In this document: positions 2,700 to 26,551 of the stretch, one piece after another
Layout: each line of letters starts with the position of its first letter
How positions within the stretch are numbered: the stretch's first letter is position 1
Source: a virus
Lineage: Duplodnaviria; Heunggongvirae; Uroviricota; Caudoviricetes
Direction: 5' to 3' (one strand)
DNA length: 26,551 nucleotides
IMG/VR virus record: IMGVR_UViG_2526164666_000046
Program-made: the position numbers and the translations under genes
Notes under the pieces: model-generated
Databases searched by the model: none
What the model was told of the DNA's origin: nothing
Seen by the model: the letters and a program-made list of their open reading frames with translations, nothing else

Positions 2700-2925
2700 C
2701 GAATTTCTCCCGTGTACAGGAACAGAGTTAAAAAGCGGAACCGGAATCAAATTACAGGATGGCCATCTGCCAGTGGCTGGTCGTAAAAAAAAGGCCAACG
2801 CCATGCGCAGCCGGAAATAAAGGGATAACGATGATAGTTTGAGAAAAACAGAAACAACACTTTTGTGGCAAAGCATGGTGCCGGGTGCCTCCCGGTGAAT
2901 TCAGTATCAGCACCTGAATCCGCGA

Positions 2926-3577
2926 TTATCCCATATACCTGGTTGCTGATCGCCCCTCCGCACAGGGGGATTCACCATGCAGTAGTATTTTTAATAAACA
3001 GTAAACAAAAAAATCAAGCATTATGCAGGCTGTTTCTTTTATCACCGGCCACAGCAATACCACAATGCCGCAGACCAGCACCCCATCCGCCAGCACCGAC
3101 ATGATTCTGCTGGTGAAATCCACCATCACCACCAGAAACAGCAGGAGTGCAGCCACAGCCAGGCGCAGTTTTACCGCACAGGTGATTCTCCAGACGAAGA
3201 CCCAGAACACCGGCAATCTCTTCCAGCACCTTGCGCTCTTCCGGCTCAATTTCGCCGTCTGCCTCCGCAATGGCCACCGCCACATCCAGCACATCTTCCG
3301 CTTCACGCGTATCGTGTTTCACATCCTCGATCTCACGTAACGCCGCACGACGTACCATTTAAGTTCGTATCCAGCTGACCGATAATGGTTGCGCTAATCG
3401 CATTAATTTCTGACGTAAACGCGGACAGCGCAGGCTGATTACGCAGTACCTGTTCGATCTTCGCTTTCTAGGAAGCCTCACATTCACCATCTGCACAGGC
3501 CACCAGGTAGGCAGCATTAATAACCGCCTGTGCCAGATCGCGTTTCTCAAACTTTCCTTTTTCCGGTTAACATGACA
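2926..3577 (-). pseudogene. Decayed TerB-domain (tellurite-resistance TerB-like) gene followed by a hydrophobic segment
   Basis: TerB-like sequence is split over three frames: ...KGKFEKRDLAQAVINAAYLVACADGECEAS, in-frame TAG (plus 3468-3470), KAKIEQVLRNQPALSAFTSEINAISATIIGQLDTN, frameshift near 3340-3358, VRRAALREIEDVKHDTREAEDVLDVAVAIAEADGEIEPEERKVLEEIAGVLGLRLEN, then another shift into a transmembrane-like stretch (2926..3306 ORF). No intact start codon. Confidence 0.5.
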
Positions 3578-10364: not shown

Positions 10365-11193
10365 GACGATGCCCTCCGCTGATATTCAGGAGACGGTGAA
10401 TATGAAAATTAGCCTTATCCGCCAGACGAATACGTTCAGCCTGCAAGTTAAGAAGGGTTTCTACCAGAACCTGATGCGCCTGCGGATCCGAAAGAGTTAC
10501 CTTGCGCAGAGCACGTAGTGCAGTTGTTACATAACTGAGTTTATGTAAGTCTTCATCATTCAGACGAGTGAGGGCTGGGGCAGTAGCCATGATGGCAGCC
10601 TCCTTGATCGGTGAAATACTTCCACCACCGGAAACGCCAATTTCGCTGGTGGTGAACTGAACGGGGTTGGCGTAACCGGTGATCAAGGAAACCGGCGCAT
10701 CTTTCGATGCCCCCGCCCAGCCCACCATAACTTTGATGTGAGCAAATGCGGACGATAAAAAAGACGCTGGCGCGTCATATATCGCCTTGATCAATTCCAG
10801 GACGCCAATCCCGGCACCCGCTTTATAAGGTGCCTGAACAGTGTAACGTCCCGGAATGGCAGAATCAATGTGCTGGTGGTCCTTCACACTCAACAAAATC
10901 ACGCCTGAATTTCCACAAAGGACTAAAGCACTCATGCGGGTAGTCTTTGCGAAGATAGATAACGCGCTGTGTTTCTGGCTCCCAACGAATAACATGGACA
11001 TAAAGCCCTCTTCCGTCACGAAACCAGCGGTTAAGTTCCTGCACAACTCGCCCCCCACAGTCAGGTAAAGTTCTCTGTGGTTACTTACAGCCAGGTGATT
11101 TGGTAATCTGCATTCATGCCGTAACAACAGGTGTTCAGCGACACTGACCACCAGCTGTTGCGACAAACGGTTATTTGCCGTTAAACTGTTCAT
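10357..11193 (-). CDS. Hypothetical early-region protein (278 aa), unknown function
   Basis: Long ORF in operon position between the YdaT-like gene and replication genes; GVSGGGS motif but no Walker A box; not assignable by eye. Confidence 0.45.
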   Translation of the reverse strand: MNSLTANNRLSQQLVVSVAEHLLLRHECRLPNHLAVSNHRELYLTVGGELCRNLTAGFVTEEGFMSMLFVGSQKHSALSIFAKTTRMSALVLCGNSGVILLSVKDHQHIDSAIPGRYTVQAPYKAGAGIGVLELIKAIYDAPASFLSSAFAHIKVMVGWAGASKDAPVSLITGYANPVQFTTSEIGVSGGGSISPIKEAAIMATAPALTRLNDEDLHKLSYVTTALRALRKVTLSDPQAHQVLVETLLNLQAERIRLADKANFHIHRLLNISGGHRHA

Positions 11194-18310: not shown

Positions 18311-18520
18311 GTGGGGCTGGATTGCGTACCTATATCAACCTACTGCCGCAACGCGGGAGAAACGGTTGATGCCGTTAACAAACGGATACAAAGAGGAATA
18401 TGGAAAGAAGGGGTACATGTATTAAAAGTCGACGGGGTTAAAGAGCGTTGGGTCGACTTAATAGAGGTTTCAAAATGGGCAAGAAAGAACAAGGATTATT
18501 ATCTCTGCCAAGAGGAGTAA
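18311..18520 (+). CDS. Excisionase-like protein (Xis)
   Basis: Small winged-helix-like ORF (…VDAVNKRIQRGIWKEGVHVLKVDGVKERWVDLIEVSKW…) immediately upstream of and overlapping the integrase gene; GTG start with GAGGTG RBS. Confidence 0.5.
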   Translation: MGLDCVPISTYCRNAGETVDAVNKRIQRGIWKEGVHVLKVDGVKERWVDLIEVSKWARKNKDYYLCQEE

Positions 18521-19650
18521 CTATTCGTAAGCATAAAACTGCTTCAACACTAGTTATCACTTTCACATATAAAGGGGTTCTTTGCAGGGAGCCCCTATCT
18601 CGGCTTGAGGCAAATACACGTGGTATAAAATATGCTGAGCGCCTGCTAGGGGAGATACAAAATCAGATCGCCAGCGGAACGTTTGAATATGCGAAATATT
18701 TCCCCAATTCCAAAAAACTGGAGTTATTCGGTGTAGTAAAGAAAACCAAAAATATTAAGTCCTATCTTGATGAATACCTGAAAATTTGCATAAACCGTAA
18801 TCTGTCGCCGTCAACCATTGGCGGTTACGAAAAATGTCTATCAGCACTATCAGAACTACATAAACTACATGTAACAGAATTGACGCCTGCGATACTAAAA
18901 AATTGGATAGCCAGCCGAAAAACTAAGCTGAAAACAATCAGGAATAACCTGTCATTTCTGCGCAGCGCCATTGATGAAGCTGTTACGGATGGCCTGCTGA
19001 CCATTAACCCGGTAACCCTCGTCAGCGCCAGCCGGTACCACGTGATCGACAGTAGCCCGAGCGCCGACGATTACGAGGTTGACCCGTTCACGCCAGCGGA
19101 GACCCTTGCCATTTACCAGAGCTGCAGGTACAGGGAATGGGAAAACCTGTTCCGCTTTGCTTTCAATACAGGTCTGCGGAGCTCAGAACTGTGCGCGCTG
19201 CGCTGGGCTGATCTCGACACCATCGCGAACACAGCCCACGTTCAGGCGGCCAGTGTCGTAGGGGTACTTAAAGGCACCAAGACAAAAGCCGGTACCCGTA
19301 AGGTGGAGCTGAACAGTGAGGCGCTGGCAGCCCTGCAGGCGCAGAAGCAATACACCTTTATGAAAAGTGAGTTCATATTCAGCGATCCGAAAACGGGAGA
19401 ACCCTGGACGAACGCCGACGCTATCCGTAAAAAAGCATGGGTGCCGACCCTGAAAAAAGCTGGTGTGCGCTACCGTAACCCGTACCAGACGCGCCACACA
19501 TTCGCCACCAGACACATTAGCCAGGGTGTAAACCTTTTCTGGCTTGCCGGGCAGATGGGGCATAAGGGGCCGGAAATGCTGTTCCGCAATTACGGTAAAT
19601 ACCTGGCTGAATACGATGGTAAAACGTCTATAAATGTTGTGTCAAGCTGA
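18475..19650 (+). CDS. Lambda-type tyrosine integrase with N-terminal arm-binding domain
   Basis: Catalytic-domain pattern ...LRSSELCALRWADLD..., ...RHTFATRHISQGVNLFWLAGQMGHKGPEMLFRNYGKYL (R..H..R..Y region); terminal position in the early-left operon after xis. Confidence 0.85.
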   Translation: MGKKEQGLLSLPRGVTIRKHKTASTLVITFTYKGVLCREPLSRLEANTRGIKYAERLLGEIQNQIASGTFEYAKYFPNSKKLELFGVVKKTKNIKSYLDEYLKICINRNLSPSTIGGYEKCLSALSELHKLHVTELTPAILKNWIASRKTKLKTIRNNLSFLRSAIDEAVTDGLLTINPVTLVSASRYHVIDSSPSADDYEVDPFTPAETLAIYQSCRYREWENLFRFAFNTGLRSSELCALRWADLDTIANTAHVQAASVVGVLKGTKTKAGTRKVELNSEALAALQAQKQYTFMKSEFIFSDPKTGEPWTNADAIRKKAWVPTLKKAGVRYRNPYQTRHTFATRHISQGVNLFWLAGQMGHKGPEMLFRNYGKYLAEYDGKTSINVVSS

Positions 19651-20009
19651 GTACATAGGCTTAAGGCTGATGAAAATTAAGAATGAGTCTACCATTGCTT
19701 TTTGTGAAATGAGCTATCATCTATGTTATTGATAGTTTCCATAGTTCATTTAGGTAATTGTAAATTTAATTAAAATCAATAACTTACATCATAGCAAGAA
19801 ATGGAGTGCAAATATATTTCTTGACTTCACGTAAGTTACTTTATTGCAATAAATTTTCACTAGGACAGTGCAAGGACACTGATAGTACTTGATGAGTCCC
19901 AGTACAAACTGTTATCCTGTGCTCCACAAATTCTAAAACTTTTATGTTTTTTTACTTTTCAAGAGCTTAACGTAGGTATCGGCGAAGCACCACAACTGGA
20001 GTGAACACT

Positions 20010-20048
20010 ATGAAAAAGACACTGACCGTAGGTTTCGGTGAAGGTTAA
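20010..20048 (+). other. 12-codon leader-type ORF (MKKTLTVGFGEG) with strong RBS
   Basis: GGAG at 19998-20001, 8-nt spacer, ATG 20010; followed 45 nt later by a hairpin + U-tract. Confidence 0.3.
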
Positions 20049-20093
20049 CTACAACCTAAAATTTTAAAACAAACCTCCATTAGCACAATAAGG

Positions 20094-20117
20094 CCTCCCA
20101 TGCGGAGGTCTTTTGTT
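20094..20117 (+). terminator. Hairpin + U-rich tail between the leader ORF and the membrane-protein gene (attenuator-like)
   Basis: CCTCC-CATGC-GGAGG followed by TCTTTTGTT; 16 nt upstream of the ATG at 20133. Confidence 0.35.
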
Positions 20118-20132
20118 ATAGGAATCAATAAG

Positions 20133-21041
20133 ATGGCGAGAACATTAGTCAACGTCAGCGCTACAATTTTTGCTCTAATGATGATTGTCAGAGCACTTTT
20201 TACTTATATCTACCCTGGAAAACTACCATTTAGCATCGCCATCATTGATTGGCTGATCGTCATTGCTGGTTCTGGTGCAGCAATATCTTCTATCTTCTGC
20301 TTCATCAAAAAACGCTATCCAGACACTGCAGAATTTCTTCCTATGTTCAGCACTGTTTGTTATGTGATTATCCTTATTGGATATGCAATTTTAAGGTACA
20401 CACCGGCCTATCAAACATCGCTTTCGATCATGGTTACAGGAATGCTCGTTGGAATGGGATGGTGGATACAATGCATAACGTCCGCTGCTAACACGCGCAG
20501 GTCCCACACGCTGAACATGATCATTAACACCCGAACAAGCCCGGAGTACCAAAAACAGCTTCGGAACAGCACCAAATTCTATCGGGGCATGCGTTATGTA
20601 CCACAAGAACTATCAGAGTGGCGCTGCAACCCAGACAAAGAAGAATACAAGAATATGAAGGTCCCCGATGAGTACAGGGATGCCATCAATGGCCTTTTAT
20701 ATATTCTTAATTATTTCGAGTTTCTTGCGCAGGGTATCAAGTTCAAGGATTTGGATGACGAATTACTGAGGGAGTGCTTCTCCAGCTTCTTACGCGGGAT
20801 AGAACGTCGTGGCTTCCACATGATCTTAGAGTCTCAGAAACAGGACCCTGCAGCCTTTGAAGGAATAATCTACCTTTCAAAAAAATGGAACGGAACATCG
20901 TTTGTTGAAACCCACCGTTCCAACCCTAATACGGTTGAGCTCGGGGTTCCATATCCTTCAAACGATATGGTTGAAAAAATGGTTCAAGGTCAGCCGTTAA
21001 TAGATAGCGACGCAGGGCCGGAACTTCAAGTGGCCACTTAA
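20133..21041 (+). CDS. Membrane protein: four N-terminal TM helices + ~170-aa cytoplasmic C-terminal domain (303 aa), unknown function
   Basis: Start taken at MARTLVNVSATIF (20133), not the track's 20100; four hydrophobic segments, then a soluble domain with no recognisable motif; AT-rich island between two integrases. Confidence 0.5.
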   Translation: MARTLVNVSATIFALMMIVRALFTYIYPGKLPFSIAIIDWLIVIAGSGAAISSIFCFIKKRYPDTAEFLPMFSTVCYVIILIGYAILRYTPAYQTSLSIMVTGMLVGMGWWIQCITSAANTRRSHTLNMIINTRTSPEYQKQLRNSTKFYRGMRYVPQELSEWRCNPDKEEYKNMKVPDEYRDAINGLLYILNYFEFLAQGIKFKDLDDELLRECFSSFLRGIERRGFHMILESQKQDPAAFEGIIYLSKKWNGTSFVETHRSNPNTVELGVPYPSNDMVEKMVQGQPLIDSDAGPELQVAT

Positions 21042-21143
21042 TCTCGTTGTATGGACCAAGAGAGGACCAGAAAATGCACTCAAAATGCACTTGAGGCATT
21101 TTAAAACAGAGAATGCATTGTTATTCAATGGGTTAAGCATTGC

Positions 21144-21175
21144 TCGGGCACGGGTTCAACTCCCGCCAGCTCCAC
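21144..21175 (+). other. tmRNA (ssrA) 3'-end-like fragment, probable att core of ssrA-targeting integrative elements
   Basis: TCGGGCACGGGTTCAACTCCCGCCAGCTCCAC matches my memory of the E. coli ssrA 3' end (...TCGGACGCGGGTTCAACTCCCGCCAGCTCCACCA) with a few mismatches; followed by T5 and a hairpin + T6 at about 21210-21246; no upstream tmRNA body. Confidence 0.55.
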
Positions 21176-21339
21176 TTTTTAGTTGTTTGAAGTTCAATGA
21201 AGTCTACTAAGCCCACACAGCACAAGCTCTGCGGGCTTTTTTACGTCTATTGTCGTCCAGTGAGAATTGCTGAGAACTACGAGTTATGGCACCCTGAATG
21301 GGACCCACTAAGAAGGGTCCAAAAACCGAGGGTCCCAAA

Positions 21340-22560
21340 ATGGCAAAAATCGCTAAGAAGCTCACTGACACTGAAATCAAAAGCACCAAGCCAGCCGATA
21401 AAGAAATCAACTTGTTTGACGGTGATGGTCTGATTCTACGAATCGCTCCTTTGGCGAAAGGAGGCAAGAAAAATTGGTATTTCAGGTATGCAGTACCCGT
21501 GAGCAAGAAAAGAACCAAAATGAGCCTTGGGACATATCCTCACCTTACCCTTGCAAGAGCCAGAGCCTTACGTGATGAATATCTCTCCTTTCTGGCAAAT
21601 GGTGTTGATCCCCAAATCCATAACAACGATAAGGCGAAGGCATTAAAGAGTGCTACTGAGCACACTCTCCAAGCCGTAGCGCGGAAATGGTTAGATGAGA
21701 AGGTAAAGACATCAGGTATCTCACAAGACCATGCAGCAGACATCTGGCGCAGCTTAGAGAGAAATGTCTTTCCCGGTCTGGGTAATGTCCCTATCCGACC
21801 TAAGCTCTTAAAACAACACCTTGATCCTATTGAGCAACGAGGCGTATTGGAAACTCTACGCCGTATCATTTCACGTCTGAATGAAATCTTCCGGTGGGCA
21901 GCTACTGAAGAACTTATTGAGTTCAACCCGGCTGACAACCTTGGTCAAAGATTCAGTAAACCAAAAAAGCAAAATATGCCTGCCCTTCCCCCAAGCGAAT
22001 TGCCAAGGTTTATGGAATCTTTGACGAATGCGTCAATCCGGTTGGAAACACGTATGCTAATTGAATGGCAATTGTTGACATGGGTTCGTCCGGGTGAAGC
22101 CGTTCGCGCAAGGTGGTCTGATATTGATACAACCAACAGCATTTGGAACATTCCTGCTGATTTCATGAAAATGAAAAAGCTTCACAAAGTTCCTTTGAGT
22201 AAAGAAGCTTTGCGCATCCTTGAATTAATGAAATCAATAAGTGGGCATAGAGAATGGGTTTTCCCCAGCATAAAAGCGCCTCTTAATCATATGCATGAAC
22301 AAACAGCCAACGCAGCTATCATCCGAATGGGGTTCGGAGGCGAGCTTGTAGCTCACGGTATGCGTTCTATTGCACGAACAGCGGCAGAGGAGTCTGGTAA
22401 ATTCAGAGCTGAAGTTCTTGAGGCAGCGCTTGCCCACTCGAAAAAAGATGAAATTATCGCAGCATACAATCGTGCAGAATATCTGATAGAGCGACAGAGT
22501 TTGATGCAATGGTGGAGTGATTACGTTCAAGCTCAAAGATCAAATGCTCTGGTAGCCTAA
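21340..22560 (+). CDS. P4-type tyrosine integrase (IntA/CP4-57-like)
   Basis: MAKIAKKLTDTEIKSTKPADKEINLFDGDGL... closely parallels the remembered IntA N-terminus; C-terminal HGMRSIARTAA...ALAHSKKDEIIAAYNRAEYL catalytic region; RBS GAGGG 8 nt upstream of the ATG at 21340. Confidence 0.85.
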   Translation: MAKIAKKLTDTEIKSTKPADKEINLFDGDGLILRIAPLAKGGKKNWYFRYAVPVSKKRTKMSLGTYPHLTLARARALRDEYLSFLANGVDPQIHNNDKAKALKSATEHTLQAVARKWLDEKVKTSGISQDHAADIWRSLERNVFPGLGNVPIRPKLLKQHLDPIEQRGVLETLRRIISRLNEIFRWAATEELIEFNPADNLGQRFSKPKKQNMPALPPSELPRFMESLTNASIRLETRMLIEWQLLTWVRPGEAVRARWSDIDTTNSIWNIPADFMKMKKLHKVPLSKEALRILELMKSISGHREWVFPSIKAPLNHMHEQTANAAIIRMGFGGELVAHGMRSIARTAAEESGKFRAEVLEAALAHSKKDEIIAAYNRAEYLIERQSLMQWWSDYVQAQRSNALVA

Positions 22561-23233: not shown

Positions 23234-24832
23234 TTAAAAACACGGCAGAAATAATATTTTTTCTTCGCCATCAACTGTTGTTCCATGATTCAACACCACC
23301 ATATAATCAACAACAGGAAGCGTTTTATCCCCTTCGAAAATAGAGAGATATTTTCTTTGATTTTTATGCATTACATATATATATTTCGAATGTTCAGCAA
23401 ATGGCAATGCTTTACTCTGACTGGCGTTAAAAAGCTCCAGAACTTTAATGAGCCTGTGCGGACTTAATCTTACATGGTGAGGGTCGTTACCCTGAGTAGG
23501 AACCAAATCACATGCCGCAGATACACATAAATACCATTTGTTCGACTCTGTATCAAAGAAAATAGTGCCAGTAGAAATATGACCATCTTCAAAATTCTTT
23601 GAAGACAAATTCATATTTAAAGCATGATACATTTCGTGATAAGTATCATTATTTGATGGCAGATCCATTTTTGAAGAGCAATATTGGAGCAATGCAGCAA
23701 CTCCGCTGTTAGCGTATTCATTTGAATAGCTATCAAAAACACTTTTGATAAATTCATCCAGCGTATTATTATTTTTAAGTCTTTGATAAAGCTCTTCTGA
23801 TAAATTACCAAATACAAAGTCAATATTTCTACATCTAATATCAGGCGAGTCTGATTTTAATATCTCATTTAACCACGCAGCTTGACCGTAATGATCGTTA
23901 GCCAAATGATTTACAAAAGATAAAGCCTCAGCTTCGATTGCATTCTGAATTTCAGATTTTATTAACTGATAATAAGATGGTTTCCATTCAATGAGAGAAT
24001 CATTGAGAGTTTGCCAAATCCTATCTCCATCGTTTTCATGATCATCTTGAACCTTATGAAATAGGGAGACAAAGATATTACCACATTGAATCCATTTTAC
24101 TCCGCTTTCATCACCCCGAATGACATTGCCAGATGTGTTGCTAGAAATAATTGCATTTCTAGACACAGCATATTCTGCAATCATTTTTGCAATGAAGTTT
24201 TTATCCTTTTGATCCTCCAACACAGCATCATCATGTATTAATCTTTTAATTCTTCTACAAGGCTTACTGTCTTTAATATAGGCTATTATTTCATCTCTTG
24301 TGAGAGCTTTATTACCATTATCATTTAAGTTCGGTAATACAACGTCTTCCCAATAACTTTGGACATCTTCATTATCGTAGTCAATGATCAAGCTGTTGAT
24401 ATCCAGAGCACCTTTGAGAGTCGATGATATCTGCATCCAAACCGTTTCTAAATTCTCTCTAGTATATATTACAATCATATTTAAATGATCGGAGTCTTTC
24501 AAATCTTGTAATAGTTTAAGTGTTTTATCAGGTGCATTATTATCAAGATGATAATCTACAATAATAAGATCTGATTTTCTAATCCGATCCACATCGAAAT
24601 TAACAGAACCATTGTCAACATCACAAATCATATTTTTAGATTGAAAAAAGCTCTCAAGAGTAGCGGCTCGTTTAGATGAGTCAATTTTGTTGTAGTCTAA
24701 ATCAACTTCGTTATTCAACGCCCTGATTGATTCAGAATACGTCAGAAAATCGTCATCAATCATGACAACGGAACGAATTGCATTTTCGCAGAAAGTTTTC
24801 TGGACAAGAGAATTATAATTTGCCACTGTCAT
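23234..24832 (-). CDS. Receiver (REC)-domain protein fused to a ~400-aa uncharacterised C-terminal domain (532 aa); candidate effector of a two-component-type module
   Basis: N-terminal REC-like pattern: SVVMIDDD (acidic pocket), DLIIVDYHL (phospho-acceptor Asp position), NMIVIYT (conserved Thr position). ATG at 24832 with GGAG 7 nt upstream, 1 nt after the kinase stop. Very AT-rich. C-terminal domain unrecognised. Confidence 0.6.
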   Translation of the reverse strand: MTVANYNSLVQKTFCENAIRSVVMIDDDFLTYSESIRALNNEVDLDYNKIDSSKRAATLESFFQSKNMICDVDNGSVNFDVDRIRKSDLIIVDYHLDNNAPDKTLKLLQDLKDSDHLNMIVIYTRENLETVWMQISSTLKGALDINSLIIDYDNEDVQSYWEDVVLPNLNDNGNKALTRDEIIAYIKDSKPCRRIKRLIHDDAVLEDQKDKNFIAKMIAEYAVSRNAIISSNTSGNVIRGDESGVKWIQCGNIFVSLFHKVQDDHENDGDRIWQTLNDSLIEWKPSYYQLIKSEIQNAIEAEALSFVNHLANDHYGQAAWLNEILKSDSPDIRCRNIDFVFGNLSEELYQRLKNNNTLDEFIKSVFDSYSNEYANSGVAALLQYCSSKMDLPSNNDTYHEMYHALNMNLSSKNFEDGHISTGTIFFDTESNKWYLCVSAACDLVPTQGNDPHHVRLSPHRLIKVLELFNASQSKALPFAEHSKYIYVMHKNQRKYLSIFEGDKTLPVVDYMVVLNHGTTVDGEEKILFLPCF

Positions 24833-24833
24833 A

Positions 24834-26551
24834 TTAGAACTCCACTCCATTGAACTGGATCACAAAATTAGCGCCATCTTTTATTAAATAGTTATCGCCT
24901 TCATCAGGTTCTGAATACCATATTTTATGATGTGCAACAGCAAGGTTTTCTCGACATAGATACAGACCTACCCCATGTCCATTTGCTCTTTTGCTATAAA
25001 ATAGTTCAAATAGTCGCGGGATATCATCGGTATCAATTGCCGGACCAGAATTTGCTATGATAACCAAAGAATTCACAAAACCAATCTTTATGAGCCTATT
25101 ATTTGACAGACTGACCCAATACATTGCATTGTTGATAATATTAGTAAAAACAGGATAGATCCTTAATGGTATATCTGTTATTGCGATTTGCTTAAACTCT
25201 TCACTAAATTCAATAGTTATTCGTTGCCGTTCGAAACGCTCCCCAAAGAACTTCAGGACATAATCCATGATATTTTTTCCAGTTATTCTCTGCCTGGATT
25301 GATAACCTGATATTTTCAAAGGTGATAAGAAACGTATTTGTTGAGTAAGCGATCTGTGAGCATTTAACGCCAATGAAAAACCAGGGTGTTCTTTTACAGA
25401 AGTAGGAAGAGAGTTTAGTCCTCTGGTTACCATAGAATCCATTTCTTCAAGTTCATGAGATATTATCTCAACACTAATACCTAACTGTGCAAGCGCGTTT
25501 AAACTTTTAGCTTTTTCTTCAAAATATGAGCGTTCTTCTTCAGATAATGAGAATGCTGAATCTAAGTTTATACCTTCAAATAATCTATCGAGACCTTTTA
25601 TTATTGATTGATATTTGAAAGTTAGGGTATCAACTGACTCAACATATAAACTATCGAGCAAATTAAACACATTTTCAATTTGTGAATCATTATCTATTGA
25701 ATCAACAACTGATATAGTTTTAGCATAATAATCACTTCGATCAACCTTTATTTCATCGGCCCATTTTTTTAAAAGAGAATGTATCTTCTCCTCTATCGTG
25801 TTATTAAACTTAGTTAGTTTAGAATTAATAATACCTTGATTTTTTCAAGGTGATTTTTCGCTGACAATGAAGGCTCAAGTTTATTTAATTCAGAATCAAG
25901 TTTATTAATTGCTAACTTCATTTGTAGAATATACGCAGAGAACTCATTAAATTTATCTCTGTAGTCTCTATATTTCTCTTCATACATTCCAAGTTTTGGA
26001 GGTTTGATAGGCGTTTTAATTTCACTGCGCAACGCATCTAAGTTTGTAAGATCACTGTCTATAATTTTAAGATAGTTTAAATCTAACGAACCATCAGTTT
26101 TATCAAGCTTAGTTTTCAGCCTTTTAACAGCCTCCAAGGAAGCATCAAGAACTGGTGTCTGATTCTTCAAAGCTTCTGAAAAACTTTTTTGTGTTGATTT
26201 TCGAGCTTGTTGTTGAGCAGATTTTCTTAACTCTTTTTCACGCTTAACTTGTTCTAAAAGCTCTTTACGGTCATCAGAACGTGAACCAAAAAATCTATCA
26301 GCAAGTTCAGTTAACAAATTAGATATAATAGTTTTCAGTTCTCTTGCAGCCTGGTTTCTTATGAATCCCTCTCTCCCCGACTTATCTTTCAGCTCTTTAT
26401 TACTGGATTGAGTAATTCCAATATAACCAAAAATCCTTCTATTAGACCAATAATATCGCCCTGCATTCCATGAACGTCTTTCTTCTATCTGGAAGAAATC
26501 ATTATCTACTCGACCATAAGGTAATACTCTCAAGCTATCCCTAAAAATCAT
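24834..26551 (-). CDS. Sensor histidine kinase (HisKA H-box + HATPase_c), 5'-partial at the window edge, reading frame interrupted at an A6 run
   Basis: Downstream part (frame open 25844..24834, no start codon) carries H-box IISHELEEM, N-box FTNIINNAMYW, G1 IANSGPAIDTDD, G2 GHGVGLYL. Upstream part (26551..25814, continues beyond window) ends 30 nt after the frame switch. One extra A in the minus-strand A6 run (plus 25840-25845) would fuse both into one ORF of at least 580 aa. Confidence 0.6.

Follow-up and report, generated by a model that had tools for sequence, protein, structure and literature searches.

A 26,551-nucleotide (nt) stretch of viral DNA (Caudoviricetes; IMG/VR record IMGVR_UViG_2526164666_000046), referred to here as the window, was found to carry, on its plus strand and behind a prophage integrase gene (int), a 12-codon micro-open reading frame (micro-ORF), an intrinsic terminator and a gene for an inner-membrane protein of the Pfam family DUF4760. 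Comparison with related loci indicated that micro-ORF, terminator and DUF4760 gene form a real three-part cassette of prophages across gamma-proteobacteria, and no description of this cassette was found in the searchable literature and databases. We tentatively read it as a two-product cassette, in which the micro-peptide and the cytoplasmic domain of the DUF4760 protein would act as a pair for the lysogen in conflicts with phages, a reading to which we give a little less than an even chance.

The micro-ORF (20010–20048) consists of 12 sense codons encoding MKKTLTVGFGEG, followed by TAA, and is preceded by the Shine-Dalgarno sequence GGAG (19998–20001), located 8 nt before the ATG; the C-terminus of the peptide is V-G-F-G-E-G. 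The original prediction, made from the window alone, had noticed this short ORF with its ribosome-binding site (RBS), the AT-rich character of the segment behind the integrase and a hairpin with a U-rich tail, all of which were confirmed: the spacer has a GC content of 32–35% (19600–20049) against 54–59% in the 3' half of int, and the hairpin was called by a terminator scan as described below. The micro-ORF is unannotated in RefSeq and in the records of phages phi467 and TRS1. A degenerate copy of its 3' half lies 56 nt upstream (19966–19987, plus strand; direct-repeat family D1), 82% identical to 20022–20043 and without a start codon, and is probably the relic of a duplication. Such duplication recurs, as locus L156 holds two intact tandem micro-ORFs, both encoding MNTAVGEG before the stop codon. 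The micro-ORF and the main ORF (starting at 20010 and 20133) share a reading frame, 123 nt apart, with the TAA between them. The residues T-V-G-F-G-E (20025–20042), with the motif [T/S]-[V/I]-G-[F/Y]-G-[E], also resemble the selectivity-filter signature of potassium channels, T-V-G-Y/F-G-D/E; this likeness is probably coincidental, since a soluble 12-mer has no pore-loop context.

Loci with relatives of the DUF4760 gene were taken from genomes, viral contigs and metagenomes, and the region upstream of each gene was inspected. In 71 of 73 close-family loci, the homologous gene was preceded by a short ORF ending in G-x-G-x-G-stop; of the two exceptions, one had lost a single base in an A-run and one ended in GFGES before the stop codon. 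The module of micro-ORF plus terminator was recognized at 137 loci, representing 50 non-redundant sequences and 40 distinct peptides, from Escherichia coli (E. coli), Pseudomonas, Shewanella, Halomonas and Acinetobacter phages, with protein identity down to about 22%. A Shine-Dalgarno-like motif served as a selection filter for these 137 loci, and hence every counted locus has one. The family ending of the peptide was [V/I/D/E]-G-x-G-x-[G/S/A]-stop, while the N-terminus varied in length and sequence, giving peptides of 9–18 amino acids (aa) in the filtered set and of 7–8 aa in further loci. Examples, each followed directly by the stop codon, are MKMIISVGFGEG in an E. coli variant, MKLETGVGAG in Pseudomonas aeruginosa (P. 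aeruginosa), MMNVGFGEG in Stutzerimonas, MDKTFAVGFGEG in Shewanella, and MRNFEIGYGEG and a peptide ending in LLIGYGEG in Halomonas. In the subfamily of Acinetobacter phages and prophages (about 22% identity, with a different membrane part), the endings were DGYGIG, DGYGIS, DGYGLG and EGIGLG. More distant DUF4760 branches carried MVRNEGTGIA, an ending HGSGCG and the tandem MNTAVGEG, together with the deviant endings SGCNE and IGCEE, and no micro-ORF was seen in one distant-branch locus. The type of peptide tracked the protein subfamily, with GFGEG or GYGEG accompanying the four-helix form and DGYGI[GS], DGYGLG, EGYGLG or [DE]GIGLG accompanying the Acinetobacter-type form.

The codon pattern GGN-NNN-GGN-NNN-GGN-stop is expected by chance 0.43 times per shuffled 26.5-kb window, counting both strands, and it occurred 17 times in 1.6 Mb outside the leaders. 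The layout exceeds chance, because a pattern so rare elsewhere is in place at 71 of the 73 loci. Among the last six codons of 11 enteric versions, 130 synonymous and 10 nonsynonymous pairwise differences were counted, with variation mostly at third positions, and all four Gly codons were found at positions -3 and -5 (counted back from the stop codon, the last residue being -1). Since the differences are overwhelmingly synonymous, the codon data indicate that the micro-ORF is under selection at the level of its peptide.

The intrinsic terminator (20090–20117, plus strand) consists of a 9-bp stem, AAGGCCTCC and GGAGGTCTT, closing the loop catgc (hairpin at 20090–20112) and followed by TTGTT up to 20117, with a folding energy of -13.0 kcal/mol and an ensemble probability of 0.96 for its pairs. 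The hairpin begins 41 nt past the micro-ORF stop, and the DUF4760 gene begins 16 nt past the T-run. A GC-rich stem of 5–14 bp with a T-run was present downstream of the micro-ORF in every lineage, with stems such as CCTCC/GGAGG, GGCCC/GGGCC, CTCCTC/GAGGAG, GCTTCC/GGAAGC and GCATCC/GGGTGC that differ between lineages with the pairing kept, as is characteristic of conservation through compensatory change. In all leaders, the RBS and start codon of the main gene followed the terminator within a few tens of nt, leaving no obvious room for a separate promoter.

The original prediction regarded the leader ORF and terminator as the layout of a classical attenuator, with conditional expression of the downstream gene. 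An antiterminator was sought in three ways, by the minimum-energy fold, by the pairing of the spacer with the 5' arm of the terminator in comparison with shuffled sequences, and by ensemble pair probabilities. The minimum-energy fold contained the terminator in all 28 leaders with a detected terminator (30 were examined); with 95 nt of the 5' untranslated region included, 21 of the 23 full leaders still showed the terminator pairs at a probability of about 0.95. The spacer and 5' arm gave approximately 0 kcal/mol in most of the 28 leaders, no better than shuffles, and the leader of the window was itself no more structured than shuffles (z = -0.96). The spacing between stop codon and hairpin ranged from 7 to 45 nt across the module loci, so that no constant steric relation to the ribosome is possible; such variability is more readily reconciled with two separate genes than with a switch of steric or structural type. 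With three negative tests for an antiterminator and a variable spacing, a classical attenuator was not supported, and conditional expression is no more likely than a constant, low level of read-through. Two candidates in the leaders were rejected: apparent 2:3 pairings in L016 and L017 arose from A/T tracts and were not conserved, and a "decoy" CCTCC (20073–20077), which could pair with the 3' arm of the terminator, was limited to the closest relatives and was dropped as a general feature.

The DUF4760 gene (20133–21041, plus strand) has its own Shine-Dalgarno sequence, AGGA (20120–20123), separated by 2 nt from the T-run upstream and by 9 nt from the ATG, and encodes 302 aa plus the stop codon, one residue fewer than first proposed. 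The ORF finder gave a 313-aa version that starts at an ATG at 20100, in the terminator loop, and the same start is adopted in database clusters (P0001, 313 aa). The four N-terminal helices of the original prediction were recovered in an all-helical AlphaFold2 model (predicted local distance difference test score, 84.7), at residues 2–26, 35–61, 69–89 and 91–135, the fourth running into a cytoplasmic, all-helical domain. By Kyte-Doolittle hydropathy, helices 1–3 were strong and helix 4 was weaker, and the positive-inside rule, applied to KKR past helix 2 and RR past helix 4, suggests an N-in/C-in topology. The C-terminal domain had been called unassigned, which did not hold with respect to family: residues 106–252 matched Pfam PF15956 (DUF4760) over profile positions 8–141 of 141, with E = 7.5e-16 and 59 bits against a gathering cut-off of 25, and the RefSeq entry WP_001431537.1 is named "DUF4760 domain-containing protein". 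The Pfam family covers the C-terminal two thirds of the protein, including helix 4, whereas the three additional N-terminal helices distinguish the present subfamily. Close homologues of about 300 aa were found in Enterobacterales and Pseudomonas (46–98% identity), with the invariant polar motifs MGWWIQ, RRxH, SRTSxEYQ, NYFEFLAQG and DLDxxLLxEC immediately behind helix 4 and in the helical domain. A profile search returned 1026 cluster representatives (50% identity) at E ≤ 1e-3, with lengths of about 120–470 aa among the 150 listed.

With respect to function, the description as unassigned stood. No relative of the protein was found in the PDB (by sequence profile and by fold) or among the BFVD viral models, and PADLOC-DB v2, whose models cover known as well as candidate anti-phage defence, yielded no significant match, the best being DrmMII with E = 0.0025 and 14.7 bits over 75 residues; structural and defence-database searches of the kinds proposed with the original prediction thus returned no relative. 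PADLOC on 60 diverse family members gave only two isolated matches with E of about 0.003. All PHROGs matches were of "unknown function", no NCBIfam family matched, and no transporter family was matched in Pfam or NCBIfam. Within the searchable literature, "DUF4760" had one passing mention and "PF15956" none.

Rather than a transporter or housekeeping membrane protein of the core genome, the finding named beforehand as decisive against a defence or exclusion role, the searches thus revealed a DUF4760 family gene of restricted distribution. Of 5426 complete E. coli genomes, 88 had the gene, in each case on the chromosome and in one copy (two in a few), and it was prophage cargo at every locus where the surroundings were examined. 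In E. coli, the cassette lies between int and the attachment (att) site; in P. aeruginosa and phage Riah, between the att site at tRNA-Leu and the lysis genes, on the opposite strand; in Acinetobacter, between the lysis genes and int; and in phage TRS1 and a P2-like prophage, within the tail cluster, between the tail chaperone and tape measure genes. The cassette of the P2-like prophage adjoins an Ltp-type lipoprotein gene and an antirepressor gene.

A phage moron, a concept of Juhala and Hendrix, is a promoter-gene-terminator unit of prophage cargo. The cassette shares with morons a position at prophage ends or between tail genes, a promoter-like element, an atypically low GC content and a patchy spread; morons are usually single genes, in contrast to the present cassette with its internal terminator between micro-ORF and main gene. 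Its genomic context is that of a moron, an accessory prophage unit of patchy occurrence at module junctions or at the prophage end. The earlier proposal of a single-gene defence or exclusion protein therefore stood as regards context, the cassette being prophage cargo at junctions and moron sites, and did not stand as regards the single gene, there being two coding parts; no PADLOC, NCBIfam, PDB or BFVD match speaks for defence.

Micro-ORFs of the same type were also observed apart from the DUF4760 gene. Two exact-pattern scans of viral contigs gave 162 matches, 32 of which precede a DUF4760 gene. When a short ORF, a Shine-Dalgarno sequence and a terminator were required, 32 exact-pattern matches passed, and a DUF4760 gene follows in 27 of these. 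The other five, each on a phage contig with no DUF4760 gene within 3.5 kb, encode MVGFGEG, MIGYGEG, MRKLIGYGEG and MRDIGYGEG (the last on two contigs), each ending at a stop codon. They are located on the plus strand at 1780–1803 of L218 and 10727–10750 of L272 and on the reverse strand of L274, L296 and L313, with stop positions at 3108, 384 and 13295 nt from the reverse-strand start. Position -6, which lay outside the search pattern, is I or V in all five, and this agreement at an unsearched position marks them as genuine relatives. The next gene is convergent in three of the free-standing units, and a new promoter follows in one. Since an operon-terminal micro-ORF followed by a convergent gene cannot be a leader, the arrangement of the free-standing copies argues for regarding the micro-ORF as a separate gene. 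Several of these units were situated at operon ends beside lysis or spanin-like genes.

In the two-product reading, the cassette would be a self-contained moron with two coding parts, not a regulator with its target. A promoter in the AT-rich spacer would drive a strongly translated micro-ORF, yielding the 12-residue peptide. The strong terminator, without competing RNA structure, would end most transcripts about 40 nt past the micro-ORF, and the DUF4760 gene would be reached by read-through transcripts only, so that the micro-peptide would be expected to outnumber the membrane protein by a large and constant factor. In the likeliest arrangement, a short-lived peptide would restrain, or be sensed by, a membrane effector used against other phages. 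A candidate sigma-70 promoter, TTGATG-18 nt-TATCCT, was located on the plus strand at 19889–19918 (-35 element at 19889–19894 and -10 element at 19913–19918), and its position and sequence were conserved in the enteric group. Promoter-like elements of the form TTGAYN-17/18 nt-TAnnnT were present 95–140 nt upstream of the micro-ORF in all groups, the equivalents in Pseudomonas and other groups being TTGACG or TTGTCA-17 nt-TAnnnT at the same distance. A transcription start near 19925, as this candidate would imply, would yield a terminated transcript of about 190 nt.

The pairing of peptide and protein is suggested by the likeness of the cassette to two known systems, mccA-mccB and toxI-toxN. 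In mccA-mccB of the microcin C operon, an intrinsic terminator after a strongly translated 7-codon ORF gives a stable, abundant short mRNA, with a short-to-long ratio of about 20:1 (Zukher et al. 2014, PMC4231749). The present cassette resembles it in a very short ORF next to the candidate promoter, in a terminator before the next gene and in a presumed high ratio of peptide to protein. It differs in that the second gene encodes a DUF4760 membrane protein instead of a ThiF-like adenylating enzyme and in that the peptide ends in G-x-G-x-G instead of Asn; no MccB/ThiF-type, modification or export gene was found, DUF4760 being the sole gene downstream before att. In type III toxin-antitoxin (TA) loci such as ToxIN, CptIN and TenpIN, which serve in abortive infection and have an anti-phage role, a terminator between toxI and toxN sets the ratio of antidote to toxin, with 1–50 bp between the parts (Blower et al. 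2012, PMC3401426), and the distances of 41 nt and 16 nt observed here lie within that range. The order of promoter, antidote element, short palindromic terminator and effector gene in those loci has its counterpart here in candidate promoter, micro-ORF, terminator and DUF4760 gene, and both kinds of locus are borne on mobile elements. In contrast to those loci, the upstream element here appears to be under peptide-level and not RNA-level selection, no tandem repeat array was present in 19600–20132 (only a 2-copy dispersed repeat, 56 nt apart), and no ToxN-type endoribonuclease was detected downstream by Pfam, which gave DUF4760 only, or by PADLOC. The anti-phage role itself is one that we infer from the moron and genomic context.

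A narrower form of the two-product reading, which we regard as distinctly unlikely as it stands, is that the G-x-G-x-G peptide (7–18 residues) is a short-lived antidote or ligand of the DUF4760 protein, the two forming an undescribed peptide-protein TA or abortive-infection pair. Constant, high synthesis of the peptide from the terminated transcript would then keep the effector silent; once an infecting phage shut down transcription or translation in the host, the peptide would disappear and the effector would be set free. In this case, the micro-ORFs without a DUF4760 gene would be counter-defence mimics of the antidote, comparable with phage-encoded pseudo-ToxI.

Several points weigh against the two-product reading. 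The pairing of the peptide with DUF4760 is drawn from analogy, and the promoter and the transcript ratio are likewise deduced from the DNA; the promoter candidate of the window agrees with the consensus at 8 of 12 positions, below the 9-of-12 threshold of the scan, and was hence not called. The searches linked the DUF4760 protein to none of the known toxins, pores, defence proteins or solved folds, and "effector" is thus a guess from context. Peptide release is slowest when Gly is the C-terminal residue (PMC10802582), which fits a cis-acting pause of the ribosome equally well. Finally, Glu at -2 was encoded by GAA in 30 of 30 cases and the last Gly by GGY in 44 of 44, a bias that hints at an added constraint at the level of RNA or decoding, for which a pure free-peptide model has no need.

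Of the alternatives, the one that survives best, and that we consider unlikely rather than remote, is a cis-acting leader operating through the nascent peptide. Slow release at G-x-G-E-G-stop would hold the ribosome on the stop codon, the dwell time would report release-factor activity, translation stress or a small ligand, and the dwell would alter the frequency of termination or the stability of the short RNA, making DUF4760 expression conditional. The restriction of conservation to the final six residues and the stop codon next to them, with a variable N-terminus, is typical of arrest peptides near the peptidyl-transferase centre, and the GAA-only and GGY-only codons suggest a decoding-level constraint. 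TnaC and the upstream ORF 2 of human cytomegalovirus likewise have conserved C-terminal residues directly before the stop codon and a last residue that slows release. TnaC acts through Rho, not through an intrinsic terminator, and needs Trp as a ligand. With Gly at -1 release is slowest, and the release-rate values of bacteria and eukaryotes correlate, as stated in PMC10802582 where it cites Pierson 2016. Moreover, a ribosome on the mcc mini-ORF switches termination on without a detectable change in RNA secondary structure (PMC4231749), and because mcc works without structural change, the missing predicted antiterminator does not exclude ribosome control. Against such a leader stand the spacing of 7–45 nt from stop codon to hairpin, which provides no fixed geometry between paused ribosome and hairpin, the lack of a conserved alternative structure in the leaders, and the free-standing micro-ORFs at operon ends, which have nothing to regulate when the downstream gene is convergent. 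The most distant branches, in addition, end differently (SGCNE, IGCEE and GTGIA before the stop codon).

It is improbable, in our estimate, that the micro-ORF acts independently, as a tiny phage gene that has a host target of its own and only tends to be located before DUF4760, and that the DUF4760 gene is unrelated and expressed by leakage, with the terminator as an ordinary end-of-gene or insulator signal that also stops read-through from int. The existence of micro-ORF and terminator units without DUF4760 accords with this view, as does the fact that the terminator would block int transcripts. The association, however, spans subfamilies at about 22% identity that differ in membrane architecture, as well as various phage types and insertion positions, the great majority of the plausible micro-ORF matches (27/32) precede DUF4760, and the type of peptide follows the protein subfamily.

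Very improbable is a classical attenuator of the trp/phe/his type sensing charged tRNA-Gly, in which ribosomes halted at the three Gly codons would make an antiterminator available. The leader shares with trpL, pheL, hisL and thrL a short ORF (whose translation is predicted here), repeated codons near its end, namely three Gly codons within five, and a terminator before the gene. A small hairpin, AGGTT/AACCT (20043–20058), with the stop codon in its loop, could act as the 1:2 pairing, and it recurs in several leaders. The leaders differ from those of the amino acid operons in that no antiterminator was found, the spacing varies, conservation is at the level of residues and not of codons, and free-standing copies exist. 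A 2:3 antiterminator was not detected, the spacer and the 5' arm of the terminator giving 0 to -3 kcal/mol in most leaders, no better than shuffled sequences, and the enteric spacer is nearly G-free and so cannot pair with the arm. As each of the four Gly codons occurs at positions -3 and -5, no single isoacceptor would be sensed, and some branches keep only one or two Gly. The conserved hydrophobic or acidic residue at -6 and the aromatic residue at -4 would be needless for codon sensing, and the downstream DUF4760 gene is not a glycine-pathway gene. Almost no credence can be given to the remaining view, in which the terminator and membrane gene are real and the unannotated micro-ORF is a chance frame in an AT-rich spacer, where 12-codon ORFs are common, since the comparative data refute it through the occurrence at 71 of 73 loci against 0.43 per shuffled window, the synonymous bias and the RBS at every counted locus (the last being the selection filter).

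DUF4760 is a sizeable family without annotated function in the prophage cargo of E. coli O26 and related Shiga toxin-producing E. coli, P. aeruginosa, Acinetobacter baumannii and others, and nearly every member examined has an unannotated micro-gene of 8–18 codons with a fixed C-terminal motif, together with an internal terminator. An anonymous "hypothetical membrane protein" thereby becomes a defined, testable two-part system. Should the peptide prove to be the partner of the protein, few functional gene products known from phage-host conflict would be as small, and present annotation and defence-finder pipelines would miss it. Should it instead act in cis as a sensor, the cassette would represent a new leader of the arrest or termination-pause kind, with an intrinsic terminator coupled to it.

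The position of the cassette between two integrases, as given in the original prediction, was confirmed by Pfam domains. The prophage tyrosine integrase (18475–19650, plus strand) contains Arm-DNA-bind_2 and Phage_integrase, and the second integrase (21340–22560) contains Arm-DNA-bind_3, Phage_int_M and Phage_integrase. The same order was found in RefSeq, with a lambdoid prophage integrase ending at 19650, the gene for the "DUF4760 domain-containing protein" and a second, CP4-57-like integrase. Over the 1.5 kb around the cassette, 99.9% identity was observed with the E. coli O26:H11 strain 11368 chromosome, with 78 other complete E. coli genomes and with the Escherichia phage phi467 record. 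In five other E. coli contexts, a 390-aa integrase that has both Pfam domains of the first integrase is followed, after about 435 nt, by a cassette variant (86% protein identity), and the DNA beyond the variant differs among the five, consisting of other islands or of the chromosomal csiD-gabD genes. Because the integrase side is constant and the downstream DNA changes, the cassette belongs to the upstream prophage.

A 3' fragment of the transfer-messenger RNA (tmRNA) gene ssrA (21130–21177, plus strand) was detected as a weak tmRNA match (E = 0.0044), with GGGTTCAACTCCCGCCAGCTCCAC, which we take to match the 3' end of E. coli ssrA; no complete tmRNA gene was found in the window. The fragment appears to be the att core where the prophage meets the next island. 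Since it sits between the two integrases without a complete tmRNA gene in the window, the arrangement indicates that the cargo of the first prophage ends with the cassette, which is placed between int and the att site.

Upstream of the micro-ORF, three tandem 11-nt direct repeats, TAGGACAGTGC, AAGGACACTGA and TAGTACTTGAT (19861–19893, plus strand), extend into the candidate -35 element. Their (A)GGAC motifs recur at equal spacing in the enteric relatives L004, L027, L037, L038 and L040, and the array is a possible binding site for a regulator. A search of Rfam, at gathering thresholds and at E ≤ 1, gave nothing in the leader, and the cassette stretch matched only the ssrA fragment and, downstream, a piece resembling IsrM. 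This partial match to the model of the Salmonella small RNA (sRNA) IsrM (21168–21242, plus strand; 51.5 bits, E = 7.6e-13, against a gathering score of 376) directly follows the ssrA fragment and ends at a terminator-like hairpin at 21224–21238. Past the stop codon of the DUF4760 gene, at 21071–21091 on the plus strand, the 11-nt unit AAAATGCACTC is repeated 1.9 times inside an imperfect long hairpin with a T-run, which was not called by the terminator scan and could be a weak terminator of the cassette.

In the island after the ssrA fragment, on the minus strand at 23234–25670 and also at 25814–26551, a Response_reg_2 (PF19192) protein adjoins a protein with HEF_HK and HATPase_c domains. Pfam groups the PF19192 and HEF_HK families together, and the two genes form a two-component-like pair. 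Their ORFs are 538 and 278 aa in the window compared with 582 and 572 aa in RefSeq strain 11368, and the window copy may have frameshifts or may differ. Elsewhere in the prophage, Rfam matches above gathering were obtained on the minus strand for the sRNA STnc100 (2837–3009), for a C4 antisense RNA, an immunity RNA of the P1/P7 type (10645–10732), and for the adjacent Hfq-binding RNA IsrK (10757–10833).

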